A stretch of DNA of 64,000 nt from Clostridia bacterium (GTDB lineage Bacteria > Bacillota > Clostridia > Oscillospirales > CAG-272), in the NCBI GenBank assembly GCA_017452545.1, contig JAFTME010000107.1, positions 828 to 64,827 on the forward strand. Reading direction: 5' to 3'. Within the stretch, counting starts at the first letter, position 1, and every line of letters starts with the position of its first letter. Below, piece after piece: positions 2,457 to 36,653 of the stretch. The position numbers and the translations under genes are program-made. The notes beneath the pieces are model-generated. The model did not search any database. It saw only the letters and a program-made list of their open reading frames with translations, and was not told the origin of the DNA.

Positions 2457-5168
2457 TTACGGCAGCCGTTCGCTGCCCTTTTTTCTGATTCTCATAATAG
2501 CGAAAAATCCCGCGGTCGTCAGAAGCAATGCTGCAAACGCCAACAGCGGAACGAAGCGTTGCTCATCCTTCGCCCCCCCAGCATCGGCATCTACGCTTTC
2601 ACGGGAAGCGAGAATGCTCTCACGCAGCGCATCCGCATCCTGATCCCTGCTCCAGCCCTCGATCTGCATCATATACAGGCGTACCGTCTCGACTTGCGTC
2701 GATATGGGCTCCACCGTGATCAGCACGGAATGACAAGCACCCGTGTTTTTGAGCATACGTCCCGTCATGGCAAGAGTCTCCATCTCCCCGCTTCGCACCA
2801 CGGCGCTGCCGACCATTCGGAAATTATCACCGAACAACGTCACGCTGACCTTGGCATCCACGGGGTTGCCGTTTTTGTCGGTCACGGCAAGCGTCGCGGA
2901 AACGGCATCGCATACCGAAAACTTTTCCGGTACAGCATAGGAATAGGTCAGCGCTCCGCAGCCTCGGCCGCTCATTTCCGCCAGCAGCACGCGTCCAAAG
3001 CGACTGCCGCCGTCCATGGAAAGCGATTCGCAGTCAAAGCCCGCATTCCATCCGAGCGTACCCAGCGCCGAGGTGAAATTCCAATACTCGTAGCTGCCCG
3101 CATACGTCTGTCGGTCCAGCTCCTCCAGCGTACATTCATAAACGGTACGGCTCTGCGTTGTCTTGCCCGACAGAACACTCCATTTGGAAAGCCCGAAATA
3201 AGGCAGCGCAAAAGCAGTGACCTCTGCTGCCGCGTTGGTGTCAATGCCCGCAATCAGCGTAGCCAATACCGTCTCGGCATCGCTGTCCTGCGTAATATGA
3301 ACGGTAAAGCCGTCCACCGCGCGGTTTCCGAAATACAGGTGGTATAAATACGCATACGAAAGCGACAGAGCAAGCCCTGTGCAGTCCGCCGGCGGTGTCC
3401 AGACAACCGTTCCCGTGTTTGCAACACATTCATACCCCGCCACACCCGAAAGCAGCGACTCAACCGTCGGTATATTTTTTGTCGCGCCAGTTGATTGCTC
3501 GTAATACATCGCCGCCTGTACGCCTTCAATCCCGTTTTGCAGAATATCCGCGTTCAAGCCAAACGGCGCGCGGTGATTTTCCAGCATCAGCGCAAAGAAG
3601 TCATCTCCGCATCCAAGATCCTCCAGCATGCGGCAAACGCCCTCCAGCAGCGTCTCCGAGGAGCAGATCCCCTGCGCCTCGCCCTGCGGTGTGTCCGTAA
3701 GCGACAAATAGACACGCGTTTCCGGGCTGTAAGCCGCCACAGCATTTTTCGTCAACGCCAAAAGGAGCGCCGTATTGAGCAAATAATCGCGAAGCGACTG
3801 TGTTCCGACGTCAAAGCTTGTCGTCGTATCCAAGCCCATACCGGGAACGATTCCCGTGGGCAGCGCATCGCCGACCTCGCCGTATTTTGCAAACAGATAC
3901 GAAAGCGCCGCACCGTATGCACGTTGCGCCTCTGCCGTCTGCAGCAGAACACCGAGATACTGTCCGTCCACCGTCGTATCAGATGCGTCAACGGTAAACG
4001 GAAGCGCGTAGCCGCGCGCATCCGGCTCGATCAAAAGCCGCAGCGTCAGCTTCATACCGATGGCAAGCAGCGGCTCGGTTTGATTGAGCAGCGCATCGAT
4101 ATACTGCCGGTCAAAGGAATAATACGCGCCGTCAAACTCATACGCCTCAACGCTGCTGTCCTCGGCAGCAAACAGGCGATTCAGATATACATCCACCATG
4201 GCAGTTCCCGCATAAACGCGCTGTGCAACGGCACTATCCTCCGCGTAAACGCCCTTAAACCCGGGTAGCGTCGCAACGCTCTCTCCCGCGTACGAGGAAA
4301 CGGCACGATGAATGGCAACCGTCGGCTCCGCCATCGGGACGGTGTTGCCGTATTTGTCCTTGAGGGCAACAGCATACCTCGCATTCGCCTCCAAAAATAC
4401 GGGCGCATCGACGGTAAAGGTAAAGCGGTTGGACATATTGTTGGTATGCAGCGGCAGCGGATTGCGCTCAAGCATCTGCTGCAGCGTTTCAAAGGGCAAC
4501 AGGCGGTACAGCAAAATGCTGCCGCCCGAGAAGTCAACCACCGAGTCGGTACGAACCGTTCCCTGCACCGTCACCGTCTGAAGCGTCGGGTCGTAGGTGC
4601 AAGCGGTGATGCTGCCATGCGTTTGCGCCAGTTGCCTGTAATACGAGGCGCGTGCGATACGGTAAACGCTGAGCTGACCGCTCTTAACGTCCTTGCATTC
4701 GATGCGAAGCTGCTCGATCTCATCGACCTCGTCGATATAGGCGTAATACACCGTTTTCTCCGACTGTGGTGCGATCTGCAACGAATACGTGCCGCTCTGC
4801 TCCTTGCCATCGGCACCGTGCCAAACATATTCCAGCAAAAGCTCGGTGCAAGAGGAACGGTTTGCGATCAACAGCTGCAAGGCATTGTTTTTCGTTTTTC
4901 CTTCATAAGCCACAAGCGAGGCATACAGCGCAGCGTTACGCTGCTCCATATAGAAATCAATTCCCTGTGTGTTGTTCATTTTCAGCACACCGCCATCCGC
5001 CTCCCAAAGGTCGGCAGAAAACTGTGCGCGATACTCCTCGCTCTGCACAGGATACGCCGTACCGTCCTGCTCAGCGGCCGACGTAGGCACGGTAAGGAGC
5101 TGCAACAGCATGGCAAGCAGCAGGCAAAGCGCGATCATATTCGATTTTCCGTATACACGGCGTACCAT
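2457..5168 (-). CDS. large surface protein, unknown function (signal peptide plus C-terminal TM anchor)
   Basis: 903 aa. AAGGAGG SD. N-terminal hydrophobic signal ending TSA-AEQ. C-terminal hydrophobic helix LLAFAALLLTTAGFFAIM followed by RIRKKGS. I recognise no catalytic motif. Confidence 0.75.
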   Translation of the reverse strand: MVRRVYGKSNMIALCLLLAMLLQLLTVPTSAAEQDGTAYPVQSEEYRAQFSADLWEADGGVLKMNNTQGIDFYMEQRNAALYASLVAYEGKTKNNALQLLIANRSSCTELLLEYVWHGADGKEQSGTYSLQIAPQSEKTVYYAYIDEVDEIEQLRIECKDVKSGQLSVYRIARASYYRQLAQTHGSITACTYDPTLQTVTVQGTVRTDSVVDFSGGSILLYRLLPFETLQQMLERNPLPLHTNNMSNRFTFTVDAPVFLEANARYAVALKDKYGNTVPMAEPTVAIHRAVSSYAGESVATLPGFKGVYAEDSAVAQRVYAGTAMVDVYLNRLFAAEDSSVEAYEFDGAYYSFDRQYIDALLNQTEPLLAIGMKLTLRLLIEPDARGYALPFTVDASDTTVDGQYLGVLLQTAEAQRAYGAALSYLFAKYGEVGDALPTGIVPGMGLDTTTSFDVGTQSLRDYLLNTALLLALTKNAVAAYSPETRVYLSLTDTPQGEAQGICSSETLLEGVCRMLEDLGCGDDFFALMLENHRAPFGLNADILQNGIEGVQAAMYYEQSTGATKNIPTVESLLSGVAGYECVANTGTVVWTPPADCTGLALSLSYAYLYHLYFGNRAVDGFTVHITQDSDAETVLATLIAGIDTNAAAEVTAFALPYFGLSKWSVLSGKTTQSRTVYECTLEELDRQTYAGSYEYWNFTSALGTLGWNAGFDCESLSMDGGSRFGRVLLAEMSGRGCGALTYSYAVPEKFSVCDAVSATLAVTDKNGNPVDAKVSVTLFGDNFRMVGSAVVRSGEMETLAMTGRMLKNTGACHSVLITVEPISTQVETVRLYMMQIEGWSRDQDADALRESILASRESVDADAGGAKDEQRFVPLLAFAALLLTTAGFFAIMRIRKKGSERLP

Positions 5169-25503: not shown

Positions 25504-26173
25504 GATCTCCCTGCGCCGCCGCACGTGGCTTGTCGCACTGATCGCCCTTGTGGGCTGCGGCGCCATGGCATTGGTGGACGGCGTCTGGATGCCACATTAT
25601 TTTGTCAAATCCGCCGTCAAGCTGACGCTGTTTTTGCTGCTTCCGCTGCTCTACAGCCGCTATGACCGCTCCGTCCGACTGCGCGAGCTGCTCCGCTTTG
25701 ATAAGCGGGGCGCCGCCGTCGCGCTGCTACTGGGACTCGGCGTCTATGCCGTGATTCTCGGTGGCTACTTCCTCTTGCGCGGCGTGTTTGATTTTTCAGG
25801 CGTAGCCACCGCGCTCTCCGAAAACGCAGGCGTCAACCGCGATAACTTTGTCTTTGTCGCGCTCTATATCTCGCTGATCAACTCGGCGCTCGAGGAATTT
25901 TTCTTCCGCGGCTTTATCTTTCGCAGCCTGCGAGAGAACGGCGCCATCTTTGCCTATCTGTTCAGTTCAGTCGCTTTCGCACTGTATCACGTTGCCATGA
26001 TGATCGGCTGGTTTTCCCTGCCCCTGACGGCGCTGATTATTGCCGGATTGATCGTCGGCGGTGTCATTTTCAATGCCCTTAACGAGCGCTTCCATACGCT
26101 GTATGTTTCCTGGGCCGTGCATATGTTTGCCAACTTCGCCATCAATACCATCGGCTTTATCCTGTTGCTTTAA
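25487..26173 (+). CDS. CPBP-family intramembrane glutamic endopeptidase
   Basis: EEFFFRG motif and an H-containing second motif (YHVAMM) in a polytopic protein. Start at MNSKPEIS overlaps the end of the ThuA-like gene by 17 nt. Confidence 0.8.
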   Translation: MNSKPEISLRRRTWLVALIALVGCGAMALVDGVWMPHYFVKSAVKLTLFLLLPLLYSRYDRSVRLRELLRFDKRGAAVALLLGLGVYAVILGGYFLLRGVFDFSGVATALSENAGVNRDNFVFVALYISLINSALEEFFFRGFIFRSLRENGAIFAYLFSSVAFALYHVAMMIGWFSLPLTALIIAGLIVGGVIFNALNERFHTLYVSWAVHMFANFAINTIGFILLL

Positions 26174-26190
26174 TCCTATGAGCTTAACAA

Positions 26191-26221
26191 ACGGCTGTCG
26201 CAAATTGCGGCAGCCGTTTTT
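26191..26221 (+). terminator. rho-independent terminator
   Basis: ACGGCTG..CAGCCGT stem followed by T5. Confidence 0.8.
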
Positions 26222-26306
26222 CGTATACCGACGCCCCATTTCAGCCATACTCAATACAGATGAAAATCCACCCGCACAATCCAAAGTTTTTTGAAAGGGA
26301 GCGTGA

Positions 26307-26337
26307 GGGGGAAGCTTTTTTCAAAAAAGCTTCCCCC
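26307..26337. repeat. 31-nt perfect palindrome upstream of the GT4 gene
   Basis: GGGGGAAGCTTTTTT-C-AAAAAAGCTTCCCCC. Confidence 0.9.
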
Positions 26338-26355
26338 TCGCAAAAAAACAGATCT

Positions 26356-27528
26356 ATGTCCATTCACCTCATGCACATTCTGACCGACACCAATATCGGC
26401 GGCGCCGGAACGCTGCTTTGTAACCAGCTTCGCGCCCTGGATCGCCGCCGCTTTACCGTCACCGTCGTCCTGCCGCACGGCAGTCGCCTTGCCGATCGCA
26501 TCGCCGCCATCCCCGCCCCAACGCGTATCGTTTACAGCAGTCGAGGTGCCGATCGTTCCGCCGACCTCAAAGCCATCGGTGACTACCTTCGCATTTTTCG
26601 AACACACCGCCCCGACATTGTCCACACACACGCCTGCCTATCCGCCCGTATCGCCGCCCGCATCGCTCGCATCCCCGTCTGCCTCCATACCCGACATTGT
26701 GTTTTTCCGCTCAAGCCATGGCAGCAGAGGGGAGCCATCGCCCCCCTTCATCGCCTGCTCTATCGCACGGGCGACCGACTGCTCTCCGACGGCGTCATCG
26801 CCGTAGCGGAGGCGGCAAAGCAAAATCTGCTCGCCCTCGGTGCCGATGAGCAGCGCATTCGTGTCATTGTCAACGGTGTCTATCCCCTTCCCATTCCCTC
26901 GCCCGCGCGCGTCGAAGCGCTTCGCGCCGCTCTGCAGCTTCCCACCGATGCCTTTGTCGTCGGTATGGTCGCACGCCTTGAGCCCTATAAAGGACATCAA
27001 ACTCTGCTTGAGGCAGCCGCGCGCTGCTTGCAAGTAAGCGACCGCTTTTATTTTCTGCTTTTGGGCGACGGAAGCTGCGCCGATGCGCTTCACCGGACCG
27101 CGTGCGAGCTCGGCATCTCAGCGCATATCCGTATGGTCGGCTTTGTCGAAGACGTAGCCCCCTATTACGGCTTGATGAACGTCAACGTCAACGCCTCCTA
27201 CGGCACCGAAACCTCCAGCCTTGCCCTCTCGGAGGGCATGAGCCTCGGCATCCCTGCCGTGGCGTCCACCTACGGCGGCAACACCTATATGGTGCGCGAC
27301 AGGGTCAACGGGCTGCTCTTCCCGACGCACGACAGCATAGCCCTCAGTCATGCGCTGCTGCGTCTCTTTCAGGACGAGCCTCTGCGTGAGCAGCTCTCCC
27401 TTGGTGCCCGTGCCTTCTTCGAGCAGCATCTGACCGCTCAAGCCATGACACGGCAAATGGAGGAATATTACAACGCACTGTATGAGCAAAAAAAGCGACA
27501 CAAAAGCAAAGCCTCAGCCGCACTGTAA
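26356..27528 (+). CDS. GT-B glycosyltransferase, family 4-like
   Basis: HILTDTNIGGAGT N-terminus and the E..G....EA-type C-terminal motif (ALSEGMSLGIPAVAS). The start is uncertain (26356 or 26371), and neither candidate has a clear SD. Confidence 0.8.
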   Translation: MSIHLMHILTDTNIGGAGTLLCNQLRALDRRRFTVTVVLPHGSRLADRIAAIPAPTRIVYSSRGADRSADLKAIGDYLRIFRTHRPDIVHTHACLSARIAARIARIPVCLHTRHCVFPLKPWQQRGAIAPLHRLLYRTGDRLLSDGVIAVAEAAKQNLLALGADEQRIRVIVNGVYPLPIPSPARVEALRAALQLPTDAFVVGMVARLEPYKGHQTLLEAAARCLQVSDRFYFLLLGDGSCADALHRTACELGISAHIRMVGFVEDVAPYYGLMNVNVNASYGTETSSLALSEGMSLGIPAVASTYGGNTYMVRDRVNGLLFPTHDSIALSHALLRLFQDEPLREQLSLGARAFFEQHLTAQAMTRQMEEYYNALYEQKKRHKSKASAAL

Positions 27529-27568
27529 GCGATAGGGACGGCTCACAAAAGTGAGACGTCCCCGTCGT

Positions 27569-28009
27569 TTATTCTTTATCGTATTTGAGCGCCTCGCGCA
27601 TCAGCACCGGTGTGACGTTGGGATACGTCAGATTTTCAGGCAGCTCCTCAAACGCCTGCACACGCGCCATTTCGCTTTCTGGCAACATACCAAGTGAACG
27701 AACCTTGGCAAGAAATACCCTGCCGTTGGAATGCCCCTTGTCGTCATAGCCATAGTAATCACAAACGGGGATGATCTCGGCATCGCTGACGCCGCTTTCT
27801 TCATAAAGTTCGCGTCGCGCCGCATCCAAGGGAGTCTCACCGGGCTCAATGTGACCGCCCTGCGTCTCCCAGGTATCCCGTTTTTTGTGTCGACTGAGCA
27901 GCCAACATCCTTGATACCACGCGCACACGACTACGTATTTATAATCCTTCAACGCTCCAAGCGGATATATACGACACCGCAAAGACAACCGCGTTTGCTG
28001 TTCATCCAT
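27569..28009 (-). CDS. NUDIX hydrolase
   Basis: 146 aa. Nudix box GGHIEPGETPLDAARRELYEESGV. Confidence 0.88.
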   Translation of the reverse strand: MDEQQTRLSLRCRIYPLGALKDYKYVVVCAWYQGCWLLSRHKKRDTWETQGGHIEPGETPLDAARRELYEESGVSDAEIIPVCDYYGYDDKGHSNGRVFLAKVRSLGMLPESEMARVQAFEELPENLTYPNVTPVLMREALKYDKE

Positions 28010-28018
28010 ACCAATTCC

Positions 28019-30433
28019 TCAAATCTTCTTCAGCTTCGCATACGTCGCCATCAGCTTTTTGGTTCCCACGCGGTCAAAGGCGACCTCCAGCAGCGTATCC
28101 GACGCCATGCCCTTGGTAGAAAGAATGACGCCCTCGCCAAAGAACGGATGGCGAACACGGTCGCCCGCCGCAAATGTGCCACCACCTGCGACAGCACCGC
28201 CGCCTGCAGCACTCTTGCCTCCGTACAGCGGCTTTCCGACCGTGATGGGATCACCGACACCGCCGCCCACACGGCGCTGCGGATGCGGCGCAGCAGCAAA
28301 TCCGCTGTACGCGGGCTTTGCCGTGCGAGAGGAGTCCTCCTCGATCAGAGCCTCGGGAATTTCCGATACAAAGCGCGAGATGGGATTGAACGCCGTCGAT
28401 CCGTAAAGCAGGCGAGTGCGCGCGTGCAGGATCAGCAGCTCGCGCTTGGCACGGGTAATGGCAACGTAAGCAAGTCGCCGCTCCTCCTCCATCTCGGCGT
28501 TCCCCGCCGTAATGGTCTGCATACCGGGGAAAATGCCGTCCTCCATGCCGGGCAGGAACACAATGGGAAACTCCAGTCCCTTTGCCGAGTGAATGGTCAT
28601 CATGACCACGGCATCCGCGCTTTCGTCGTAACGGTCAACGTCGGCAACCAGCGCGTTTTCCTCCAAAAATCCGGTCAGCGTCGGCTCCTCGGCGTTGCGG
28701 CAATACTCGATCACGCTGGATTTGAACTCCTCCAGGTTCTCAAGTCTGTCCTTTTCCTCCTCGCCCGCATCAATCAGCATCTGACGGTAGCCTGTCTGGT
28801 CCAACACGGCGTCAACCAGTGCGGGCAGCTCCATGTCCGCCGCCTCACGTGACAGCTTGTTGATCATGTGCGCAAAATTGTACAGCGTCGCTGCCGCTCT
28901 CTGCAGCGCCACGTACTGATGCGCACACTCCATGACCTCAAACATCGAGAGCCCCTGCTCTGCCGCAATGCTCTCCACTGCCTCCAGCGTCTTGTCGCCG
29001 ATCTTGCGCCGCGGCTCGTTGATGATGCGCAGCAATCTCTCTCGGTCGTTATGATTGTTGACCAGCTGCAGATATGCCACAAGATCGCGGATCTCCTTGC
29101 GATCCGAGAAGCGAACGCCACCCAGCATACGGTACGGCACCGCACTCTTGGCAAACGCGCGCTCAATGCTGTTGGATTGTGCATTGGTGCGATACAGCAC
29201 GGCAAAATCGCGGAATTTTGCAGTTCCCTCCGCCACGCGACGGTTGACCTCGTCTACAATGTATCTCGCCTCGGCGTTTTGATCGTCCAAGCCGACCAAA
29301 CGGATCTTCTCTCCGCCGCTCTGTGCCGTCCAAAGTCGCTTGCCCTTGCGCCCCTCGTTGTGCGCAATGACCGCATTGGCAGCATCCAGAATATTTTGCG
29401 TCGAACGATAGTTCTGCTCCAGCTTAATAACTCGCGCATCGCTGAACAGACGGTCAAACGAAAGAATATTCTCGATCGTCGCGCCGCGGAAGCGATAAAT
29501 ACTCTGATCGTCGTCACCAACGACCATCAGATTGCGATAACCGCCCGAGAGCAGCGTGGTCAGCGCGAGCTGCGCCGCATTGGTGTCCTGGAACTCATCC
29601 ACACATACGTAGCGGAAGCGACGCTGATATTGCTGCAGTACCTCCGGCTGCTCGCGCAGTAAACGAACCGTCTGCATGATAATGTCATCAAAATCCATCG
29701 CGCCCGAGGCAAGCAGCTGCTTCTGATATTCCTCGTAAACGCGAGCGATCTGCTTGAGTCGGTAGTCTACCCCCGCTTCAGTCGCGTAATCGTCCGGCGT
29801 CAACAGCTTGTCCTTGGCGTGGCTGATCGCGCTCATCACACTTTTGATGGGAAATGCCTTCTCATCCACGTTGCACTTTTTCATGGCAGCGGCAATCGCC
29901 TTTTTGCTGTCATCCATATCGTAGATGGAAAACTCCTTGGGATAGCCGAGAAGCGTACCGTGCACGCGCAGAATGCGCATACAAATGGAGTGGAAGGTGC
30001 CGGCCCAGATGTCGTTTGCCACGCTCTCCTCCTCAAAGGAGGCACGCAAGCGGCTCTTGATCTCGCCCGCCGCCTTGTTGGTAAAGGTAATGGCAAGCAT
30101 CTGCCACGGCGGACAGGGGTTGCTGATAAATTCGGGCAGAATATCCTCGATCTCCTCGCAGGACAGCGCCAGCGCCCGCTCATAGGTAGCAATCTGCTCC
30201 TCGGTGATCCCGTAGGGCACGTAAGTGGACTCATAGGCGTTGCCGTAGCGAATAATAAACGCAATGCGCTTGACCAGCACCGTCGTCTTTCCGCTCCCCG
30301 CCCCGGCAAGGATCAAAAGCGGATGATTGACGGCAAACACCGCCCTCCGCTGCTCGGGATTGAGATTTTCGTATACCTTATCAAATAACGCGCGCTTGGC
30401 ACGTAAATACCGTTCACTTAGTTGTTCAGTCAT
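28019..30433 (-). CDS. pcrA: ATP-dependent DNA helicase PcrA/UvrD
   Basis: 804 aa. Superfamily-1 helicase motifs are present (AGAGSGKT, DEFQDTN, VGDDDQSIY), and the C-terminal region ends FAAGDRVRHPFFGEG. Confidence 0.93.
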   Translation of the reverse strand: MTEQLSERYLRAKRALFDKVYENLNPEQRRAVFAVNHPLLILAGAGSGKTTVLVKRIAFIIRYGNAYESTYVPYGITEEQIATYERALALSCEEIEDILPEFISNPCPPWQMLAITFTNKAAGEIKSRLRASFEEESVANDIWAGTFHSICMRILRVHGTLLGYPKEFSIYDMDDSKKAIAAAMKKCNVDEKAFPIKSVMSAISHAKDKLLTPDDYATEAGVDYRLKQIARVYEEYQKQLLASGAMDFDDIIMQTVRLLREQPEVLQQYQRRFRYVCVDEFQDTNAAQLALTTLLSGGYRNLMVVGDDDQSIYRFRGATIENILSFDRLFSDARVIKLEQNYRSTQNILDAANAVIAHNEGRKGKRLWTAQSGGEKIRLVGLDDQNAEARYIVDEVNRRVAEGTAKFRDFAVLYRTNAQSNSIERAFAKSAVPYRMLGGVRFSDRKEIRDLVAYLQLVNNHNDRERLLRIINEPRRKIGDKTLEAVESIAAEQGLSMFEVMECAHQYVALQRAAATLYNFAHMINKLSREAADMELPALVDAVLDQTGYRQMLIDAGEEEKDRLENLEEFKSSVIEYCRNAEEPTLTGFLEENALVADVDRYDESADAVVMMTIHSAKGLEFPIVFLPGMEDGIFPGMQTITAGNAEMEEERRLAYVAITRAKRELLILHARTRLLYGSTAFNPISRFVSEIPEALIEEDSSRTAKPAYSGFAAAPHPQRRVGGGVGDPITVGKPLYGGKSAAGGGAVAGGGTFAAGDRVRHPFFGEGVILSTKGMASDTLLEVAFDRVGTKKLMATYAKLKKI

Positions 30434-30484
30434 GATCGTTCATCCTCTTCCTCTTTGATCGTTCCACTAAAAAAATACAGAATT

Positions 30485-30513
30485 ATTGTATCATAAATAC
30501 ACCGGAAAGTCAA
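30485..30513 (-). promoter_or_regulatory. sigma-A promoter of pcrA
   Basis: On the minus strand: TTGACT, 17-nt spacer, TACAAT. Confidence 0.55.
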
Positions 30514-30532
30514 TGCGTTCGGTTGTAAAAAT

Positions 30533-30560
30533 TGGGATGCTGCGGTAAGACTTGAACCTG
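30533..30560 (-). other. degenerate copy of a tRNA 3' end (T-arm/acceptor-like), possible att remnant
   Basis: The minus-strand sequence CAGGTTCAAGTCTTACCGCAGCATCCCA aligns with the tRNA-Leu 3' end TGGGTTCAAGTCCCACCACCGGCACCA. The two share an exact 10-mer, GGTTCAAGTC, and are in the same orientation. Confidence 0.4.
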
Positions 30561-30662
30561 CTCGGCTTCACCTTGCTGCAAGTTTGCCTGCCGCGTGATA
30601 TGTTCTGCAATATTTAAAGATCGTACAGCGGCAGGTGGGTTCGAGTTAACCACTCTCGATGC

Positions 30663-30702
30663 AAAAAAGAACCGCTTGGGCATACCCAAGCGGTTCTTTT
30701 TT
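30663..30702 (-). terminator. strong bidirectional terminator closing the islet operon
   Basis: AAAAAAGAACCGCTTGGG-CATA-CCCAAGCGGTTCTTTTTT. Confidence 0.85.
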
Positions 30703-30760
30703 GCGAAAGACTACCTAAACGGAGCAGAATCGAGGTAAAAAAGCCTAAAAGTACACCAGG

Positions 30761-31099
30761 TTAAAGTTGTTTATATAGCAAGGAGATTGTCGACTTAAAA
30801 TACTGTTCTTGGAAATGTGTTAATTCCGCAATCTCTTCCTGCGTAAAAGTCATACCATCCGGTGCAACTACCCATTTATGTTCTATATCATTCTCACGAT
30901 TGATAATGGCTATTATTCTTCCGGTAAACTCAGAAACAGGCTCATTCACGCCTAAAATATAAGCGTCCTCTTCTTCGCCATCTGCCGCCATTGTTCCATT
31001 AATATAGCCATAGTTTATAGGATAATGTATATCCGGATGCTCAGGATGAAAACTTCCAAGTGGTCTGTCAACGGTTACCGTAACAATTGGGCCAATCAT
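30761..31099 (-). CDS. truncated family-I inorganic pyrophosphatase homologue (about 112 aa)
   Basis: YPINYGYINGTMAADGEEEDAYIL parallels the E. coli Ppa segment [23 protein letters not shown]. The first ~40 residues of a full PPase are absent. The ATG overlaps the upstream stop as ATGA. Low-GC codon usage. Confidence 0.65.
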   Translation of the reverse strand: MIGPIVTVTVDRPLGSFHPEHPDIHYPINYGYINGTMAADGEEEDAYILGVNEPVSEFTGRIIAIINRENDIEHKWVVAPDGMTFTQEEIAELTHFQEQYFKSTISLLYKQL

Positions 31100-31443
31100 T
31101 TCCCATTCTCCTTTGCGGTGTTGATAGAGGCAATGAGAATTCGACGGATCGTTCCGCATTGATTATAGAGATCAACAGTTGTTTCTCTGTTCAGAATGTC
31201 GGATTTCACAAACAGCTCCAACCAGTATTCAGTCTCGTAACACTCTTTTAAGGCAATTTGCAATTTGGCAATAAAGTCAGGCTTTCCGTGTGCATAATTT
31301 GCCTCATGGATATTTGCACCAATTGAGGTGGCAGAACGCTCCAATTGATTGACAAGAGAATAATGGCCTTTGATCGTTTCACAGAGTTTAATTATCTTAA
31401 TAGCGAAACCCATAGATAATTCAACGAGCTTATTTTCTTTCAT
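31096..31443 (-). CDS. four-helix-bundle protein (23S rRNA intervening-sequence protein / Avd-like family)
   Basis: Start at MKENKLVE, preceded by GAGGTGAGG. The hallmark QLERSATSIGANIHEA....DF..KL.IALKE..ETEYWL is present. Confidence 0.8.
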   Translation of the reverse strand: MKENKLVELSMGFAIKIIKLCETIKGHYSLVNQLERSATSIGANIHEANYAHGKPDFIAKLQIALKECYETEYWLELFVKSDILNRETTVDLYNQCGTIRRILIASINTAKENGK

Positions 31444-31462
31444 TATCCTCACCTCTGCAAAT

Positions 31463-31491
31463 ATTATAGCATATTTAATGAAATATTGCTA
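31463..31491 (-). promoter_or_regulatory. candidate extended -10 promoter for the four-helix-bundle gene
   Basis: On the minus strand: TGCTATAAT, with a poor -35 (TAGCAA). Confidence 0.35.
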
Positions 31492-31649
31492 CGCAATATG
31501 AAATAATCCTTTGGATTATGAAATATTTTGCCTTAGCGGCAAAATGTGAAATAAAATAAATCCCTCATACGCCGCTGCGTATTTCATAGCGTCAGCTATT
31601 TCATAACGCGAAGCGTTATTTCACAAATCCCGCAAGGGATTTATTTCAT
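31478..31649. repeat. mirror-symmetric array of seven mini-hairpins
   Basis: Hairpins at 31483-31499, 31503-31519, 31525-31545, 31567-31582, 31586-31599, 31603-31619 and 31625-31642. Stems are 5-8 bp and all differ in sequence, but six begin ATA/ATT and end TAT/AAT (the seventh runs AAATCCC/GGGATTT). Spacers are GAA(AT) in the left arm and TTC(AC) in the right arm. Confidence 0.85.
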
Positions 31650-31651
31650 TG

Positions 31652-31692
31652 AAAAGAACCCACACTTGTCGTAGACAAATGCGGGTTCTTTT
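31652..31692 (-). terminator. terminator directly after tRNA-Leu
   Basis: AAAAGAACCC / GGGTTCTTTT outer stem with an inner TTGTC/GACAA stem. A U-run follows on the minus strand. Confidence 0.8.
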
Positions 31693-31693
31693 C

Positions 31694-31779
31694 TGGTGCC
31701 GGTGGTGGGACTTGAACCCACACGATGTTGCCATCAGAGGATTTTGAGTCCACCTCGTCTGCCATTCCGACACACCGGC
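31694..31779 (-). tRNA. tRNA-Leu (anticodon CAA), class II with a long variable arm, CCA encoded
   Basis: Manual fold. Acceptor GCCGGTG/CACCGGC, anticodon loop CTCAAAA, T-arm GTGGG-TTCAAGT-CCCAC, 86 nt. Confidence 0.88.
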
Positions 31780-31788
31780 GCGAGATGT

Positions 31789-31817
31789 ATTATAGCACAC
31801 TTCCTTTACAAAATCAA
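31789..31817 (-). promoter_or_regulatory. sigma-A promoter of tRNA-Leu
   Basis: On the minus strand: TTGATT, 17-nt spacer, TATAAT, ending about 9 nt before the mature 5' end. Confidence 0.6.
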
Positions 31818-31908
31818 GAGGGTTTCGCAATTTTTTTAAAAAATCGGCAATAAATTTTACGGAGAGCCACCAAAAAGGCAGCTCTCCGCACGCATAATTG
31901 CGAAAGGA

Positions 31909-34485
31909 TTACTTTTGATATTTACCCGTAATACGAGCGACCTCGAACAGGATCCAGCTTGCCTGCTCCTGGTTACCGGAGTCGGCAAGACGGCCGTCGG
32001 CTACCCAAGTCTCGGGATAGATCTCGTTGGAGCGCTTATCAACGAACTCCAGAACGTCGTTGAGTCGCTCGGTATTGCCCGTCTTCCACAGATAATACAG
32101 CTCCCAACCAAGACCCTTACCAATGACGTGGTTGCCGTGATAAGTTGCTTGATCCTTGTCGTTTACGTCAACAACAACCGCCAGCATATCGATACCGGAA
32201 TACTTTTGCGTTCCGATCTTCAGATATGCTTCATAGGTGTTCGCCATGATCTCTTCGTTTACTGCGTACCAATCCGAAGCAATGGGAGCAAGGTTGACAA
32301 AGGAGAAGCCGCGATAGACCGCGCCGCCCTCGTCCAGAGCGATCAGCTCAGTATAAATCGGCTTGCCCTCAAACTCGGAAACAAGCTCCGTGTGCACTGC
32401 CTCAGCAATATCGTCCGCTGCTTTAGCAAACTCGTCGGCGACTGCATTGTCTCCGTACATCTTTGCAACCTGACTCATCTTATGCAGTGCCTCGGAGGCA
32501 AAGCAGTTGGTGATCAGGTCGTAGCCATCCCAATATCTGCCCTTACGGGAGTGCTCATAGTTTGGATTATGTACCAGCCCGTTTTCATGGATATAACCGT
32601 TGTCAAGGAAATAACGGGTATATTCGATCATCAGATCGTAAACGGAATCCAGGAACTCACCGTACTCCTCTCCGCTCTCCAGCGCAAACATAGCGAATGC
32701 GTTCATCCACATATAGTTGCCGTCGACCTGGATCTTGGTCGAAATGGGAGTTACGTTGGAAATACCGGCACGGTAAGAAAGTACAAGCTCCTGCGCTTTA
32801 CCGTCCACGTGGCAGGCCTGTGCTCTGTCAATGCCTGCCTTTCCGAACCACTGAACCGACTCGGCACGCGAAGCACCGATTTGAATCGAATATGCTTCGT
32901 CGGCATTCAGCTTGCTCATCGGCAGCGCGAACTCAAAGTTGTAAGCAGCCGCCTTGCTGCCAAGCGTAGATACGGGGCGCGTAACCTCGCTGATAAGCGC
33001 ATCGCCCTTGTAAAGCGAAACCGTAAAGGTATCCTCTGCGGCAGCCGTGCCAACAGCCGCGAGATACAGCTGTGCGGAGGTTACAAGCTTGGAATTCAGA
33101 GTAGAGGAAAGCGTCTGCTTTGCCTCAACACCGCCGCCAACCTTAACGCCGACAGCCGTGCGGGTACCGGAGTACTCGGGATATACACGCAGCGCATAGG
33201 TCTCACCCAAAGGTGCCTTGTCACCGTCTGCGCTCTTGTATGCAACGGTTGCAGCCGCAGCCGTAGCCCATACAACGTCGCCCTTCTCCGCATAGACGGA
33301 AAGGCCATAGGTTTTCCCCTCCGTAACCTTAACGGAGCCGAAATCAAAGGCAACCTTGCCGCCGCTCGTCTTTACCGTAGCCGTTTTCACTTCCTTACCG
33401 TCGGCATCCACCAGCGCACCGTACAGATTGGTCTCCACGCTGCAGGTCGCGTCGATCTCGATGGTATCGATCACATCACCCTTTGCAACAAAGGTCTGGG
33501 TAACCGCGTTGCCCTTGCCGACCAAGGAGTTATCCGTGCGGATGCGGTAGCCGATCACCTGACCGTTGGAAACCCAACCGCCAAAAGCAGGAACGTCGAA
33601 GTTGTAGCCGGAACCACCGCTGGTCTTACCAAAGGAAATGATGTTGCCCGTTGCATTTTCTGCCCAAACGCTGAGAACGTACTTTTCGCCCGCCTCAACG
33701 TCTACCGGTTCGTCAAATTTAAAGGTGTACCAGTCCTTGCCCGAGCCGAGGTCTGCAATATCGCGGGAAATTTTACCGATAGAGTCATCTCCGGGCTCGG
33801 TACCGAGGCTGACAACGATCTCGCCCTCCTTACCGGCAAGCTCCAGATATACAGAGATCTCGCTGACATTATCAAACGGAAGCATGATCTTCTGTGCACA
33901 GCCATTGGTCGGCATATTGATCTTGTAAAGTGCAATGGAGGTATCCTCGGAGGAAACGGACGTGCCGACCTTTCCAAGCTCGGGTGCCTCATAGGACATA
34001 TCCTTGTCGATATAATCCCAAACGCTGTTTGCCGTCAACTCACTCATAATATGATGCGCAAACGGAGCGTTCGTCGCCTTGTGATAGGACGCCATAAAAC
34101 GAAGAATGCTCATTGCCTCGTCCATATCGCCCTCAGCGATGTGCGCCATGACCTGAATAGACGCGTCACGAACAAACATACCCTGATATGCGCCTGTCAG
34201 AGACGTCTGCGCATAGCCGTTCTCGTGCAAGCGATCCAGCATCGTCTTGTAGGTAGCATCATACAGCTTTTGTCCTTTTTCAGACAACTTTACATACTGA
34301 TCCATATCGTCCTCCTTGCCTCCATCGGGATTTTCAGGCTGGTCGGGAGTTTGCTCACCGTCCTGCGACTGATCGGGGGTGGGATCCGGCTCCTCGTCCG
34401 GCTTTTGGCACGCGGTCAACAGGGTGCCAAGAACAAGCACCAATGCCAGCAGCATCGCCAGCGCTTTGATTACCGTCGGCTTCAT
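31909..34485 (-). CDS. large lipoprotein, probable glycoside-hydrolase-like alpha-helical barrel interrupted by three tandem beta-sandwich-like modules
   Basis: 858 aa. Lipobox LLTAC, then a Pro/Asp/Glu/Gln-rich linker. Repeated motif FKFDEPVDVEAGEKYVLSVWAE / FDFGSVKVTEGKTYGLSVYAE / FEFALPMSKLNADEAYSIQIGA. Confidence 0.75.
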   Translation of the reverse strand: MKPTVIKALAMLLALVLVLGTLLTACQKPDEEPDPTPDQSQDGEQTPDQPENPDGGKEDDMDQYVKLSEKGQKLYDATYKTMLDRLHENGYAQTSLTGAYQGMFVRDASIQVMAHIAEGDMDEAMSILRFMASYHKATNAPFAHHIMSELTANSVWDYIDKDMSYEAPELGKVGTSVSSEDTSIALYKINMPTNGCAQKIMLPFDNVSEISVYLELAGKEGEIVVSLGTEPGDDSIGKISRDIADLGSGKDWYTFKFDEPVDVEAGEKYVLSVWAENATGNIISFGKTSGGSGYNFDVPAFGGWVSNGQVIGYRIRTDNSLVGKGNAVTQTFVAKGDVIDTIEIDATCSVETNLYGALVDADGKEVKTATVKTSGGKVAFDFGSVKVTEGKTYGLSVYAEKGDVVWATAAAATVAYKSADGDKAPLGETYALRVYPEYSGTRTAVGVKVGGGVEAKQTLSSTLNSKLVTSAQLYLAAVGTAAAEDTFTVSLYKGDALISEVTRPVSTLGSKAAAYNFEFALPMSKLNADEAYSIQIGASRAESVQWFGKAGIDRAQACHVDGKAQELVLSYRAGISNVTPISTKIQVDGNYMWMNAFAMFALESGEEYGEFLDSVYDLMIEYTRYFLDNGYIHENGLVHNPNYEHSRKGRYWDGYDLITNCFASEALHKMSQVAKMYGDNAVADEFAKAADDIAEAVHTELVSEFEGKPIYTELIALDEGGAVYRGFSFVNLAPIASDWYAVNEEIMANTYEAYLKIGTQKYSGIDMLAVVVDVNDKDQATYHGNHVIGKGLGWELYYLWKTGNTERLNDVLEFVDKRSNEIYPETWVADGRLADSGNQEQASWILFEVARITGKYQK

Positions 34486-34524
34486 TGTGAAATCTCCTTT
34501 TTATATATGTTTTTTGAGTATAGA

Positions 34525-34555
34525 AAAGGCTGCCAGCGCGGGGGTGACAGCCTTT
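34525..34555 (-). terminator. terminator after fba
   Basis: AAAGGCTG / CAGCCTTT stem followed by a U-rich stretch on the minus strand. Confidence 0.55.
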
Positions 34556-34564
34556 ATTCCGGAT

Positions 34565-35428
34565 TTACGCCTTACCGACCGATCCGAACAGCTCCATTTT
34601 TTCTTTAACGGTAGCCTTGATCGCCTCATAACCGGGTGCGAGAACCTTACGGGGGTCAAAGCCCTTGCCGGAGAGGTCCTTGCCTGCTTCGATATACGCG
34701 CGGGTTGCCGCGGTAAAGGAAAGCTGGCATTCGGTGTTGACGTTGATTTTGGACACGCCAAGGCTGATCGCCTTCTGAATCATGTCCGCAGGAATACCGG
34801 TTCCGCCGTGCAGAACGAGCGGCATCTCACCCGTCAGCTGCTGAACTGCGTCCAGCGTCTCAAAGGACAGGCCCTTCCAGTTTGCGGGATACTTGCCGTG
34901 AATGTTGCCGATACCGGCAGCCAGCATATCGACGCCCAGATCAGCGATCTTCTTGCACTCCTCAGGATCGGCACACTCGCCCATACCGACGACACCGTCC
35001 TCCTCGCCGCCAATCGAGCCGACCTCCGCCTCAATGGACAGACCCAGCGCGTGAGCAACGTTGACCAGCTCCTGCGTCTTGGCGATGTTCTCCTCGATGG
35101 GATAGTGAGAGCCATCGAACATGATGGACGAGAAGCCTGCCTTAATGCACTTATAGCAGTCCTCGTAGGTACCGTGGTCCAGATGAATGGCTACGGGAAC
35201 GGTAATGTTCAGCGACTCGATCATTGCCTTTACCATGTCGGCTACGACCTTGAAGCCCGCCATATACTTGCCTGCACCTGCGGAAACACCAAGGATGACG
35301 GGAGAGTTGCACTCCTGCGCCGTGGTAAGAACCGCCTTGGTCCACTCGAGGTTGTTGATATTGAACTGACCGACCGCATAATGACCGGCCTTTGCTTTTT
35401 TCAGCATTTCTGCTGCGGATACTAACAT
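34565..35428 (-). CDS. fba: class II fructose-1,6-bisphosphate aldolase
   Basis: 287 aa with motifs GQFNINN, HLDHG and HGGTG. Confidence 0.93.
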   Translation of the reverse strand: MLVSAAEMLKKAKAGHYAVGQFNINNLEWTKAVLTTAQECNSPVILGVSAGAGKYMAGFKVVADMVKAMIESLNITVPVAIHLDHGTYEDCYKCIKAGFSSIMFDGSHYPIEENIAKTQELVNVAHALGLSIEAEVGSIGGEEDGVVGMGECADPEECKKIADLGVDMLAAGIGNIHGKYPANWKGLSFETLDAVQQLTGEMPLVLHGGTGIPADMIQKAISLGVSKINVNTECQLSFTAATRAYIEAGKDLSGKGFDPRKVLAPGYEAIKATVKEKMELFGSVGKA

Positions 35429-35519
35429 TGATTTGATCCTCCGTTATATTGATACACATATTATAACAAATATCGTCCGTTTTGTCAATAAGCCGCGCGC
35501 AAGACGGCAAACTTTTTTG

Positions 35520-35533
35520 TGAATAAATATTCT
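35520..35533. promoter_or_regulatory. candidate ArgR/AhrC operator (ARG box)
   Basis: TGAATAAATATTCT matches TGAATwwwwATTCA at 13 of 14 positions. Two further GAAT..ATTC palindromes lie at about 35544-35556 and 35562-35575, upstream of the argF promoter. Confidence 0.4.
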
Positions 35534-35583
35534 TTCTGCGCAGGGAATATTCACATAACAAGGAATAATATTCACCCCGACTA

Positions 35584-35612
35584 TTGACAAGAGCGTACCC
35601 ATGTGCTATAAT
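35584..35612 (+). promoter_or_regulatory. sigma-A promoter of argF
   Basis: TTGACA, 17-nt spacer, TATAAT. Confidence 0.65.
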
Positions 35613-35666
35613 ACAGTATTATGACACTTTGGTCGCATTTTTACACGAAACAGAAAGGACAATCGT

Positions 35667-36653
35667 ATGATCGATCTGAAAGGAAGAGATTTTCTCAAGC
35701 TGTTGGACTATACCCCCGAGGAGCTTGAGGGGCTGCTGGCGCTCGCCGCCGAGCTCAAGGCAAAGAAAAAAGCGGGCATCCCGCATAAAATACACGAGGG
35801 AAAAAACGTCGCCCTGATCTTCGAGAAGACCAGCACCCGCACACGCTGCGCCTTTGAGGTCGCCGCACACGATCTCGGCATGGGAACGACCTACCTTGAC
35901 CCCACCGGCTCGCAGATCGGTAAAAAGGAAAGCATCGCCGATACCGCGCGCGTGCTGTCCGGCATGTACGACGGCATCGAATACCGCGGCTTCGGCCAGG
36001 AGATCGTCGAGGAGCTGGCACACTATACCTCCGTTCCCGTCTGGAACGGTCTGACCAATGAATTCCACCCCACCCAGATCCTTGCCGATTTTCTGACCAT
36101 CAAGGAAAAATTCGGCAAGCTCAAGGGCATCAACTTTGTCTACATGGGCGACGCCCGCTATAACATGGGCAACTCGCTGATGGTCGGCTGCGCCATGATG
36201 GGCCTCAACTTCACCGCCTGCGCCCCCCGCGCCTACTTCCCCGACGCTGCGCTGATCGAGCAGGCACAGGCCCTGGCAAGCAAGAGCGGCGCTACGCTGC
36301 GCTTTATCGAGGACCCGGCCGAGGCTGCCGCCGGTGCCGACGTCATCTATACCGACGTCTGGGTGTCCATGGGTGAGCCGATCGCCGTTTGGGAGGAGCG
36401 CATCCGCGACCTCTCCCCCTATCAGGTCAACGCCGCACTCATGCAAAAGGCAAACCCCGGTGCCGTCTTTATGCATTGCCTCCCCGCCTTCCACGACATG
36501 AAAACGACGGTCGGCAAGGAAATGGGAGAGAAATTCGGGCGTACCGAAATGGAGGTCACCGACGAGGTCTTTGAATCGGCACAGTCGGTCGTTTTCGACG
36601 AGGCGGAAAACCGTATGCACACCATCAAGGCGGTCATGGCGGCTACCCTGTGA
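35667..36653 (+). CDS. argF: ornithine carbamoyltransferase
   Basis: 328 aa with motifs STRTR, HPTQ and HCLP. Confidence 0.93.

Follow-up and report, generated by a model that had tools for sequence, protein, structure and literature searches.

Integrons hold promoter-less, swappable gene cassettes behind a Pc promoter, handled through IntI, attI and attC, and in class 1 integrons a leader frame, ORF-11, provides translational coupling. We describe here a locus that resembles this arrangement in several respects. It lies in a 64,000-nucleotide (nt) stretch from a Clostridia bacterium of the Oscillospirales (CAG-272; assembly GCA_017452545.1, contig JAFTME010000107.1, positions 828 to 64,827), hereafter the window, and it centers on two small overlapping genes, one for a four-helix-bundle (4HB) protein, which we call the leader, and one for a trimmed family-I pyrophosphatase (mini-PPase), which we call the cargo. 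We put at roughly three in four the probability that these two genes make up one cassette of a modular, tRNA-flanking leader-plus-cargo family in gut Clostridia, in which the PPase is interchangeable.

The components of the locus have described relatives. The leader belongs to PF05635/TIGR02436, the family of the 23S rRNA intervening sequence (IVS) proteins; such genes have long been annotated as “orphan Avd-like” or “IVS protein” and to our knowledge have no known role, and our search of the literature on PF05635 or IVS protein function returned nothing relevant. Avd, the accessory protein of diversity-generating retroelements (DGRs), is a small protein whose working partners are an enzyme and a structured nucleic acid. 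The repeats upstream of the leader match the Gut-1 motif (RF01706), which was described from the human gut metagenome as an orphan noncoding RNA with no gene association (Weinberg et al., 2010, PMC2864571). The cargo is related to short type-I inorganic pyrophosphatase (InPase) domains, which are fused to or adjoin NUDIX and GNAT domains in Lachnospiraceae, occur in conflict proteins of phages and conjugative elements, and have been proposed to clear inorganic pyrophosphate (PPi) or to process nucleotide-like substrates (Iyer et al., 2017, PMC5512222). Neither protein family is new; for the cassette architecture itself we found no description in the literature searched.

As in integrons, the cargo at loci of this kind is small, promoter-less and swappable (GNAT, nucleotidyltransferase-related, NUDIX, lipoprotein and unknown genes), can stand in tandem, would be expressed from an upstream promoter of a shared type, and follows a leader frame that would aid its translation. 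Unlike in integrons, each cassette has its own promoter, its own arrays and often its own 4HB gene, may lie behind any tRNA, and carries repeats that are Gut-1-type arrays and not attC sites. Like the IVS proteins, the leader is encoded by a small open reading frame (ORF) in a short AT-rich insert beside a stable-RNA gene, with inverted repeats nearby, whereas its gene lies behind a tRNA, with Gut-1 arrays and a promoter ahead of it and variable cargo coupled to it in translation. Avd has a four-helix-bundle fold family distantly related to that of the leader, which in contrast has no reverse transcriptase (RT), no template and variable repeats (TR/VR) and no phmmer match to Avd chains, and has an isoelectric point (pI) near neutral. 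One of the two arrays passes the Rfam gathering score for Gut-1, a motif that here forms convergent pairs upstream of a cassette promoter, with words specific to each locus. The cargo, finally, keeps the shortened OB-fold family-I core and the acidic metal ligands of the short type-I InPases (PF00719, PF18823; PMC5512222), and its relatives are likewise fused to NUDIX and GNAT; what distinguishes the window protein is that it stands alone, as the cargo of a cassette.

Architecture of the locus

Read along the minus strand, the window presents a tRNA, a terminator, convergent arrays, a promoter, the 4HB gene, an (A/G)TGA junction and the cargo. The terminators, the promoter and the Shine-Dalgarno (SD) element listed here were read from the sequence.

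31694-31779, minus strand: tRNA-Leu(CAA), the cassette lying directly downstream (ARAGORN; Rfam tRNA, 52 bits)
31651-31693, minus strand: tRNA terminator hairpin GAAAAGAACCC...GGGTTCTTTTC
31576-31651, minus strand: Gut-1-type hairpin array in sense orientation, with TGAAATA words between short hairpins (Rfam RF01706, 65.4 bits; gathering score 50)
31470-31545, plus strand: second Gut-1-type array, inverted, TATTTCA on the gene strand (RF01706, 47.2 bits over 31470-31529)
31463-31471, minus strand: putative promoter element of the extended -10 type, TGCTATAAT, placed after both arrays and immediately ahead of the ribosome-binding site of the 4HB gene
31096-31443, minus strand: 4HB leader gene, 115 amino acids (aa) from its ATG (PF05635/TIGR02436)
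31108-31113, minus strand: SD element AAGGAG for the cargo, within the last 4HB codons (…TAKEN…), 8 nt before the cargo ATG
30761-31099, minus strand: cargo, the trimmed family-I pyrophosphatase (mini-PPase), a short InPase-type domain of 112 aa
30692-30753, minus strand: conserved 3' cassette element with core TTCTGCTCCGTTT, directly after the cargo stop (comparison of loci)
30663-30703, no strand assigned: bidirectional intrinsic terminator closing the cassette, hairpin AAAAAAGAACCGCTTGGG / CCCAAGCGGTTCTTTTTT, with flanking A and T runs

A sequence-only reading of the window had singled out these genes as an ATGA-overlapping pair, flanked by a promoter and a strong terminator within an islet of low GC, and had placed their products in the 23S rRNA IVS/four-helix-bundle family and among the family-I pyrophosphatases. 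These observations were confirmed by the searches reported below, and the interpretation attached to them was partly supported. The overlap comprises 4 nt (tcat on the plus strand at 31096-31099, ATGA on the minus strand), and the GC content falls to 35-42% over ~30350-31700, against 55-60% in the flanks; the neighbors of the islet are pcrA and a lipoprotein gene. The 4HB gene has an alternative start, GTG at 31452. A start of the mini-PPase at an upstream in-frame ATG (31159) would extend it to 132 aa, but its homologues are 108-112 aa long, starting with MIG. The tRNA-Leu(CAA) is the only one in its genome; the sequence-only account of the pair mentions neither this tRNA nor the two arrays. 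Candidate promoters equivalent to TGCTATAAT can be read at the same place in contigs C125 and C101 of the same genome and in loci L001 and L004.

The two arrays, of four words each, converge between the tRNA and the promoter, the second run being a mirror image of the first. Their shared center, AAATAAATCCC (31546-31575), has its complement in part of the sense array's first hairpin (31636-31646). Convergent arrays also stand upstream in 63 of the 68 close 4HB loci that have enough upstream sequence, and a same-strand tRNA lies within 450 nt in 54 of the 68, with 28 different anticodons represented. Arrays are also present at 57 4HB loci of greater divergence, where the word differs (ATGATG, GTGAAG, AGTGAT, CGATAT, CTAAAT and others). 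The window's own genome has three cassette-type 4HB genes (on C94, C125 and C64), each after an array with its own word, and at least six arrays. The cassettes at C64:~2500-3231 and C125:1-600 use the words TCGATATG and GTGATATT, respectively, and the C64 4HB gene is ATGA-coupled to a different gene (MINILLEGYDIDAPWLYDELKKYMQ…). Both of these cassettes are at contig ends, which suggests that the repeats break the assembly.

Variable cargo behind a conserved leader

The case for a modular cassette rests mainly on what follows the leader in other genomes. We scanned one genome per species for 4HB relatives and based our counts on the closest 80 (75-97% aa identity), whose hosts are Oscillospiraceae, Acutalibacteraceae, Ruminococcus, Christensenellaceae and Lachnospiraceae metagenome-assembled genomes. 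The mini-PPase directly follows the 4HB gene in only two of the 80, one of them disrupted; the remaining cargo includes GNAT, NUDIX, MazG and HAD proteins, AAA_18 kinases, methyltransferases, SfsA, DUF6678, DUF4288, lipoproteins and membrane proteins. Two loci (L020 and L021) encode a 4HB protein 97% identical to that of the window, yet have different cargo. Compared with L021, the window has a 97% identical leader and an unrelated cargo, and compared with L189, L001, L004 and L101 it has cargo that is 91, 87, 79 and 66% identical behind leaders that are 53, 55, 57 and 52% identical. The mini-PPase is thereby found behind four different leader types, and since the identities of leader and cargo are uncoupled, leader and cargo recombine freely.

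The sequence-only reading had proposed a dedicated functional pairing. Such a two-protein module, with the 4HB protein as a subunit, a chaperone or a nucleic-acid-binding partner of the PPase and the overlap enforcing stoichiometric co-expression, would account for the ATGA overlap in all six of the 4HB-PPase cassettes examined (64-93% cargo identity, four leader types) and for the 4HB gene usually found upstream of the inspected close PPase homologues (at least 79% identity). The synteny that the pairing predicts does exist in some other contigs (L001, L004-L007, L019, L101 and L189, each with the ATGA overlap), but the pairing is rare overall. Of the 80 closest 4HB relatives, 78 have other cargo in place of the PPase, in most cases joined by an identical overlap, and PPase homologues of 74% identity or less have no 4HB gene (29 of 30 metagenomic loci and 18 of 20 family loci). 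The one metagenomic locus with a 4HB gene upstream is the closest, at 90% identity, and of the two remaining family loci fetched, one ends at a contig edge. The recurrent partners of the PPase domain are instead GrpB, ANT, APH, NUDIX and GNAT, to which it is fused.

A census of the taxonomic family, based on an even sample of 151 genomes, gives the same picture. There are at least 150 copies of the 4HB gene (PF05635) in 82 of the genomes, at 1-9 per genome, and mini-PPase homologues of 44-66% identity, nearly always in single copy, in 61, and the two genes are adjacent in only two, namely the window genome and G098. Gut-1 arrays are present in 89 of the genomes, with up to 29 matches each. The 4HB gene co-occurs weakly with the mini-PPase (odds ratio 2.2, p = 0.03) and strongly with the arrays (odds ratio 13, p = 4e-12), both values being uncorrected for phylogeny.

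Cargo may also do without the leader. At C101:~4000-5000 (minus strand) in the window's own genome, a tRNA-Trp, a terminator, convergent arrays with the word ATGAAATCC and a TTGACT-17-TATAAT promoter precede a NUDIX gene with no 4HB gene between them, and over its first 70 residues this NUDIX protein is ~94% identical to the cargo of L093, which is ATGA-coupled to a 4HB gene. With a NUDIX cargo present both with and without it, the 4HB gene is frequent but optional. We consider a dedicated two-protein module unsupported and very improbable, and continue with the reading of the locus as a leader-plus-cargo cassette.

Translation signals at the junction

The 4HB gene ends in …ACC GCA AAG GAG AAT…AA ATG A, and the AAGGAG block within these codons is invariant in the alignment even between leader types that are ~50% identical. 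Across the 4HB gene, conservation at third codon positions is raised only at this SD element and at AAATGA. The conservation of the junction is thus explained by translation signals and gives no evidence of a core recombination site; a long invariant recombination core at this point was considered and rejected, the raised third-position conservation being confined to the two motifs. The stop context of the 4HB gene among the 80 closest relatives is ATGA in 44, GTGA in four and a TAA, TAG or TGA in 32, making (A/G)TGA the context in 48 of the 80.

The overlap had earlier been taken to imply obligatory co-expression. That inference did not hold, because an AAGGAG inside the 3' end of the 4HB gene, 8 nt before the cargo ATG, means that co-translation of 4HB and cargo is not strictly obligatory. 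The leader would thus supply a ready-made translation initiation region for its cargo, start codon included. We note a caution for annotation, in that ATGA overlaps at loci of this kind reflect cassette architecture and should not be taken to indicate a functional partnership.

Borders, insertion site and carriers

DNA homology between the window and most loci runs from ~31655, the first base of the array, to ~31096, the ATGA, and then stops. These borders define the conserved unit as a leader module of ~560 bp, made up of arrays, promoter and 4HB gene. On the far side of the cargo, a 60-nt 3' element is common to loci with other cargo (L021 with NUDIX, L032 and L137) and to L001 and L056. In L021 and L137 the next array follows this element, from which we conclude that cassettes stack in tandem, and in L021 a 95% identical copy of the tRNA terminator hairpin also sits after the cargo.

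The tRNA-Leu(CAA) and pcrA are neighbors in genomes of the same genus as well. In two of these (G152 and G153) the site is empty, with only 60-140 nt between the tRNA terminator and pcrA, and four others have different inserts at the site, none with a 4HB or PPase gene. The mini-PPases of the genus, found in two genomes, are only 48-51% identical to that of the window, and many other taxa have relatives of 85-94% identity. The foreign GC content, the empty or differently occupied sites and the distance of the same-genus PPases together indicate that the cassette was acquired in a tRNA-flank hotspot.

Two observations concern the tRNA itself. The tRNA-Leu(CAA) of the window is ~77-79% identical to the pcrA-adjacent copies in nine other genomes of the genus, which are nearly identical to each other, and the tRNA gene may itself have been replaced or brought in with the cassette. 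Three same-genus genomes (G036, G123 and G151; loci L122, L123 and L127) have ~200-bp tandem repeats just downstream of tRNA-Leu(CAA), each repeat ending in a duplicated tRNA-Leu 3' end (CCGATCACCGGCACCA) and a copy of the terminator; these are another kind of tRNA-flank repeat than the Gut-1 arrays.

Only two viral contigs carry a 4HB relative, each time with the match close to the end of the contig, and the PPase is found in no viral contig; plasmid matches are below 60% identity and mostly cyanobacterial. Phages and plasmids were rejected as carriers on these grounds. A Y1 transposase of the IS200/IS605 or RAYT type was likewise rejected as the trans-acting mover of the arrays, since the genome of the window and many genomes rich in arrays lack it. 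Neither the islet nor its immediate flanks contain an ORF the size of an integrase gene, and IntI and attC were not searched for systematically.

The layout of the locus, two small low-GC genes that overlap by 4 nt in a tRNA-flank hotspot, also resembles a toxin-antitoxin (TA) or anti-phage pair, in which the 4HB protein would be the antitoxin or the sensor and the enzyme encoded after it would deplete a nucleotide or PPi pool; the presence of short InPase domains in conflict proteins of phages and conjugative elements (PMC5512222) is in keeping with such a role. We regard this as very improbable. Neither protein matches a family in PADLOC or in PHROGs, so that no membership of a known TA or defense system was found and a defense or phage origin was rejected. 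The cargo behind the same leader consists mostly of ordinary small enzymes and lipoproteins and not of a set of toxins, the 4HB protein is conserved far beyond the level usual for antitoxins, and the near absence of both genes from viral contigs points the same way.

The leader protein

The 4HB protein matches PF05635 with 91.2 bits (E 6e-26, cut-off 33.8) and TIGR02436 with 99.9 bits (E 9e-29, cut-off 24), as well as the solved structure 2RLD from Bacteroides thetaiotaomicron (E 1.6e-22). Among its relatives, nonsynonymous differences per site (pN) are 0.035-0.15 and synonymous sites are saturated (pS 0.66-0.9), the mark of a functional protein under very strong purifying selection, most copies of which are old. 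Its pI is 7.7.

The initial description of the locus as free of RT, template repeat and rRNA context agrees with our searches. PF00078 has no match anywhere in the window's own genome (90% complete), no direct repeat of at least 40 nt of the TR/VR type occurs at window positions 26000-36500 (within 5 kb of the locus), an Rfam scan of 30300-32000 returns the tRNA and Gut-1 alone, and phmmer finds no match of the 4HB protein to solved Avd chains. With no RT in the genome and no TR/VR repeat at the locus, the 4HB protein is not a DGR Avd; nor is it an IVS protein in the strict sense, its gene not lying inside a 23S rRNA gene. We guess that it may be a factor specific to the cassette, which would act on the neighboring arrays as a regulator or, by analogy with Avd, would assist mobility or maintenance.

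If it were purely a regulator, the locus might involve no mobile cassette at all: the 4HB protein would be a host factor that binds the arrays and controls accessory genes in variable regions beside tRNAs, and the diversity of cargo would arise solely through ordinary homologous recombination and gene loss in a hotspot. The arrays do occupy an operator-like position upstream of the promoter, the cassette has no recombinase, the Y1 transposase is missing as noted above, and the saturated synonymous sites mean that most copies are old and not recent transfers. We nevertheless find this account unlikely, given that the arrays are several-fold commoner than the 4HB genes (up to 29 against 1-9 per genome), that cassettes with sharp borders stand behind 28 tRNA species and stack in tandem, that the GC content of the islet is foreign and the site is empty in congeners, and that the pI of 7.7 does not suggest strong binding to nucleic acid.

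A modular family of cassettes, which we prefer, admits a broader and admittedly doubtful version. The PF05635 4HB gene could be the signature gene of recombinase-less mobile cassettes that home to stable-RNA genes, with the tRNA-flank cassettes and the 23S rRNA intervening sequences as two forms; the 4HB protein, acting on the arrays much as Avd does on DGR RNA and RT, would recruit a host enzyme to insert cassettes or exchange them, and the ATGA and SD signals would dock any ORF that is captured. More immediately, the recognition of one gut-Clostridia clade of PF05635 as a conserved leader gives a testable context both for this orphan family and for the Gut-1 motif.

Distant PF05635 genes were also seen inside a recF/gyrB housekeeping cluster (L162, G120:C1:141300-147800), one after recF and one after gyrB, a placement that fits selfish, insert-anywhere behavior of the wider family. 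In L173 (G076:C28), two identical 133-codon frames with PF05635 genes stand in direct tandem, 525 nt apart, after a tRNA-Pro; these frames are longest-ORF calls from an upstream GTG.

The pyrophosphatase cargo

The mini-PPase matches PF00719 with 27.8 bits (gathering cut-off 23.5) and, by sequence, family-I pyrophosphatases in the PDB. It fits PF00719 better than PF18823, for which its 15.5 bits fall below the cut-off of 26.8. An AlphaFold (AF2) model with 40 homologues as input has a predicted local distance difference test score (pLDDT) of 91.5, and the top 50 Foldseek matches to this model are all family-I pyrophosphatases (probability 1.0, TMq 0.6-0.7), with no unrelated fold among them. 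The protein is, as had been noticed at the outset, truncated at its N-terminus, by ~30 residues and not the ~40 first estimated: its residue 3 lines up with residue 34 of 6n1c. Its C-terminus is also shorter than in canonical enzymes.

The reported change of the DGDPxD metal cluster to DGEEED is likewise real. In the motif D40-G-E42-E43-E44-D45, residues D40, E42, E43 and D45 are invariant in the 40 homologues, as are R12, Y26, N29, Y30, D71, E73 and K75 elsewhere in the protein. The active-site set is not complete. Because the mini-PPase begins at about residue 32-34 of canonical enzymes, the N-terminal Glu/Lys/Glu segment is absent, and conservation does not extend to the Lys of the C-terminal YFK motif; R12, Y26, Y30, D40, E42, D45, D71, E73 and K75 are retained. 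The ratio of nonsynonymous to synonymous rates (dN/dS) is ~0.1, a sign of purifying selection, and 7142 homologues were found.

Within family genomes, PPase domains occur in GrpB-PPase, GrpB-PPase-NUDIX, GrpB-PPase-GNAT, APH-PPase, ANT(AadA-like)-PPase and PPase-NUDIX fusions (loci L108-L112 and L115-L117). GrpB is a nucleotidyltransferase-fold family, and fusion to PPi-releasing enzymes lends indirect support to the predicted PPi hydrolysis. Most likely, then, the mini-PPase hydrolyzes PPi or the diphosphate in a nucleotide-like compound, and its retained residues and fusions fit an autonomous small hydrolase that would assist PPi-releasing enzymes. The GrpB, ANT, NUDIX and GNAT fusions in particular point to clearance of PPi or of nucleotide diphosphates as its job.

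A housekeeping role was considered and rejected: a homologue is found in only ~40% of family genomes, and the mini-PPase is therefore not essential. The window's own genome has no H+-PPase and no other PF00719 match, family-II PPases not having been searched for. In L003, a stand-alone mini-PPase gene lies between rpmE and an overlapping dNK/AAA_18 kinase gene.

Proposed expression and exchange of the cassette

Under the reading of the locus as an interchangeable leader-plus-cargo cassette, transcription would start at the promoter downstream of the arrays and end at the bidirectional terminator. The 4HB ORF would be translated first, and the cargo would be translated by ribosomes that terminate at the TGA or that initiate at the embedded AAGGAG. 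The leader module would in this way give its cargo both transcription and translation signals, and the two proteins would be co-expressed with no mutual biochemical need. Cargo could be exchanged by homologous recombination between the leader and the 3' element, both of which are conserved, or by a recombinase acting in trans, which the 4HB protein would assist at the arrays. Mobility of the cassettes, if real, would amount to an integron-like shuffling of genes in a phylum where integrons are rare.

Several points weigh against this reading. Use of the promoter and co-transcription are deduced from sequence features only. The cassette contains no recombinase or mobility gene, nor was such a gene identified in trans, so that “mobile” describes comparative patterns. 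The mini-PPase has no canonical N-terminal segment, which leaves true PPi hydrolysis a prediction. The co-occurrence statistics, as stated, are uncorrected for phylogeny. Lastly, a 4HB gene still precedes the PPase with four leader types and at cargo identities as low as 64-66%, and some room is left for a PPase-specific benefit of the 4HB protein.

A tRNA-like remnant beside the cassette

One further feature, read from the DNA by inspection, is found between the terminator of the cassette and the promoter of pcrA.

30533-30660, minus strand: tRNA-like remnant, T-arm-like GGTTCAAGTC… / GGTTCAAGTCTTACC

Neither ARAGORN nor Rfam calls a tRNA at these positions, and the remnant does not form a repeat family within its own genome. 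A partial similar copy of 38 nt is found at C125:751-788, where it lies beside another 4HB cassette.

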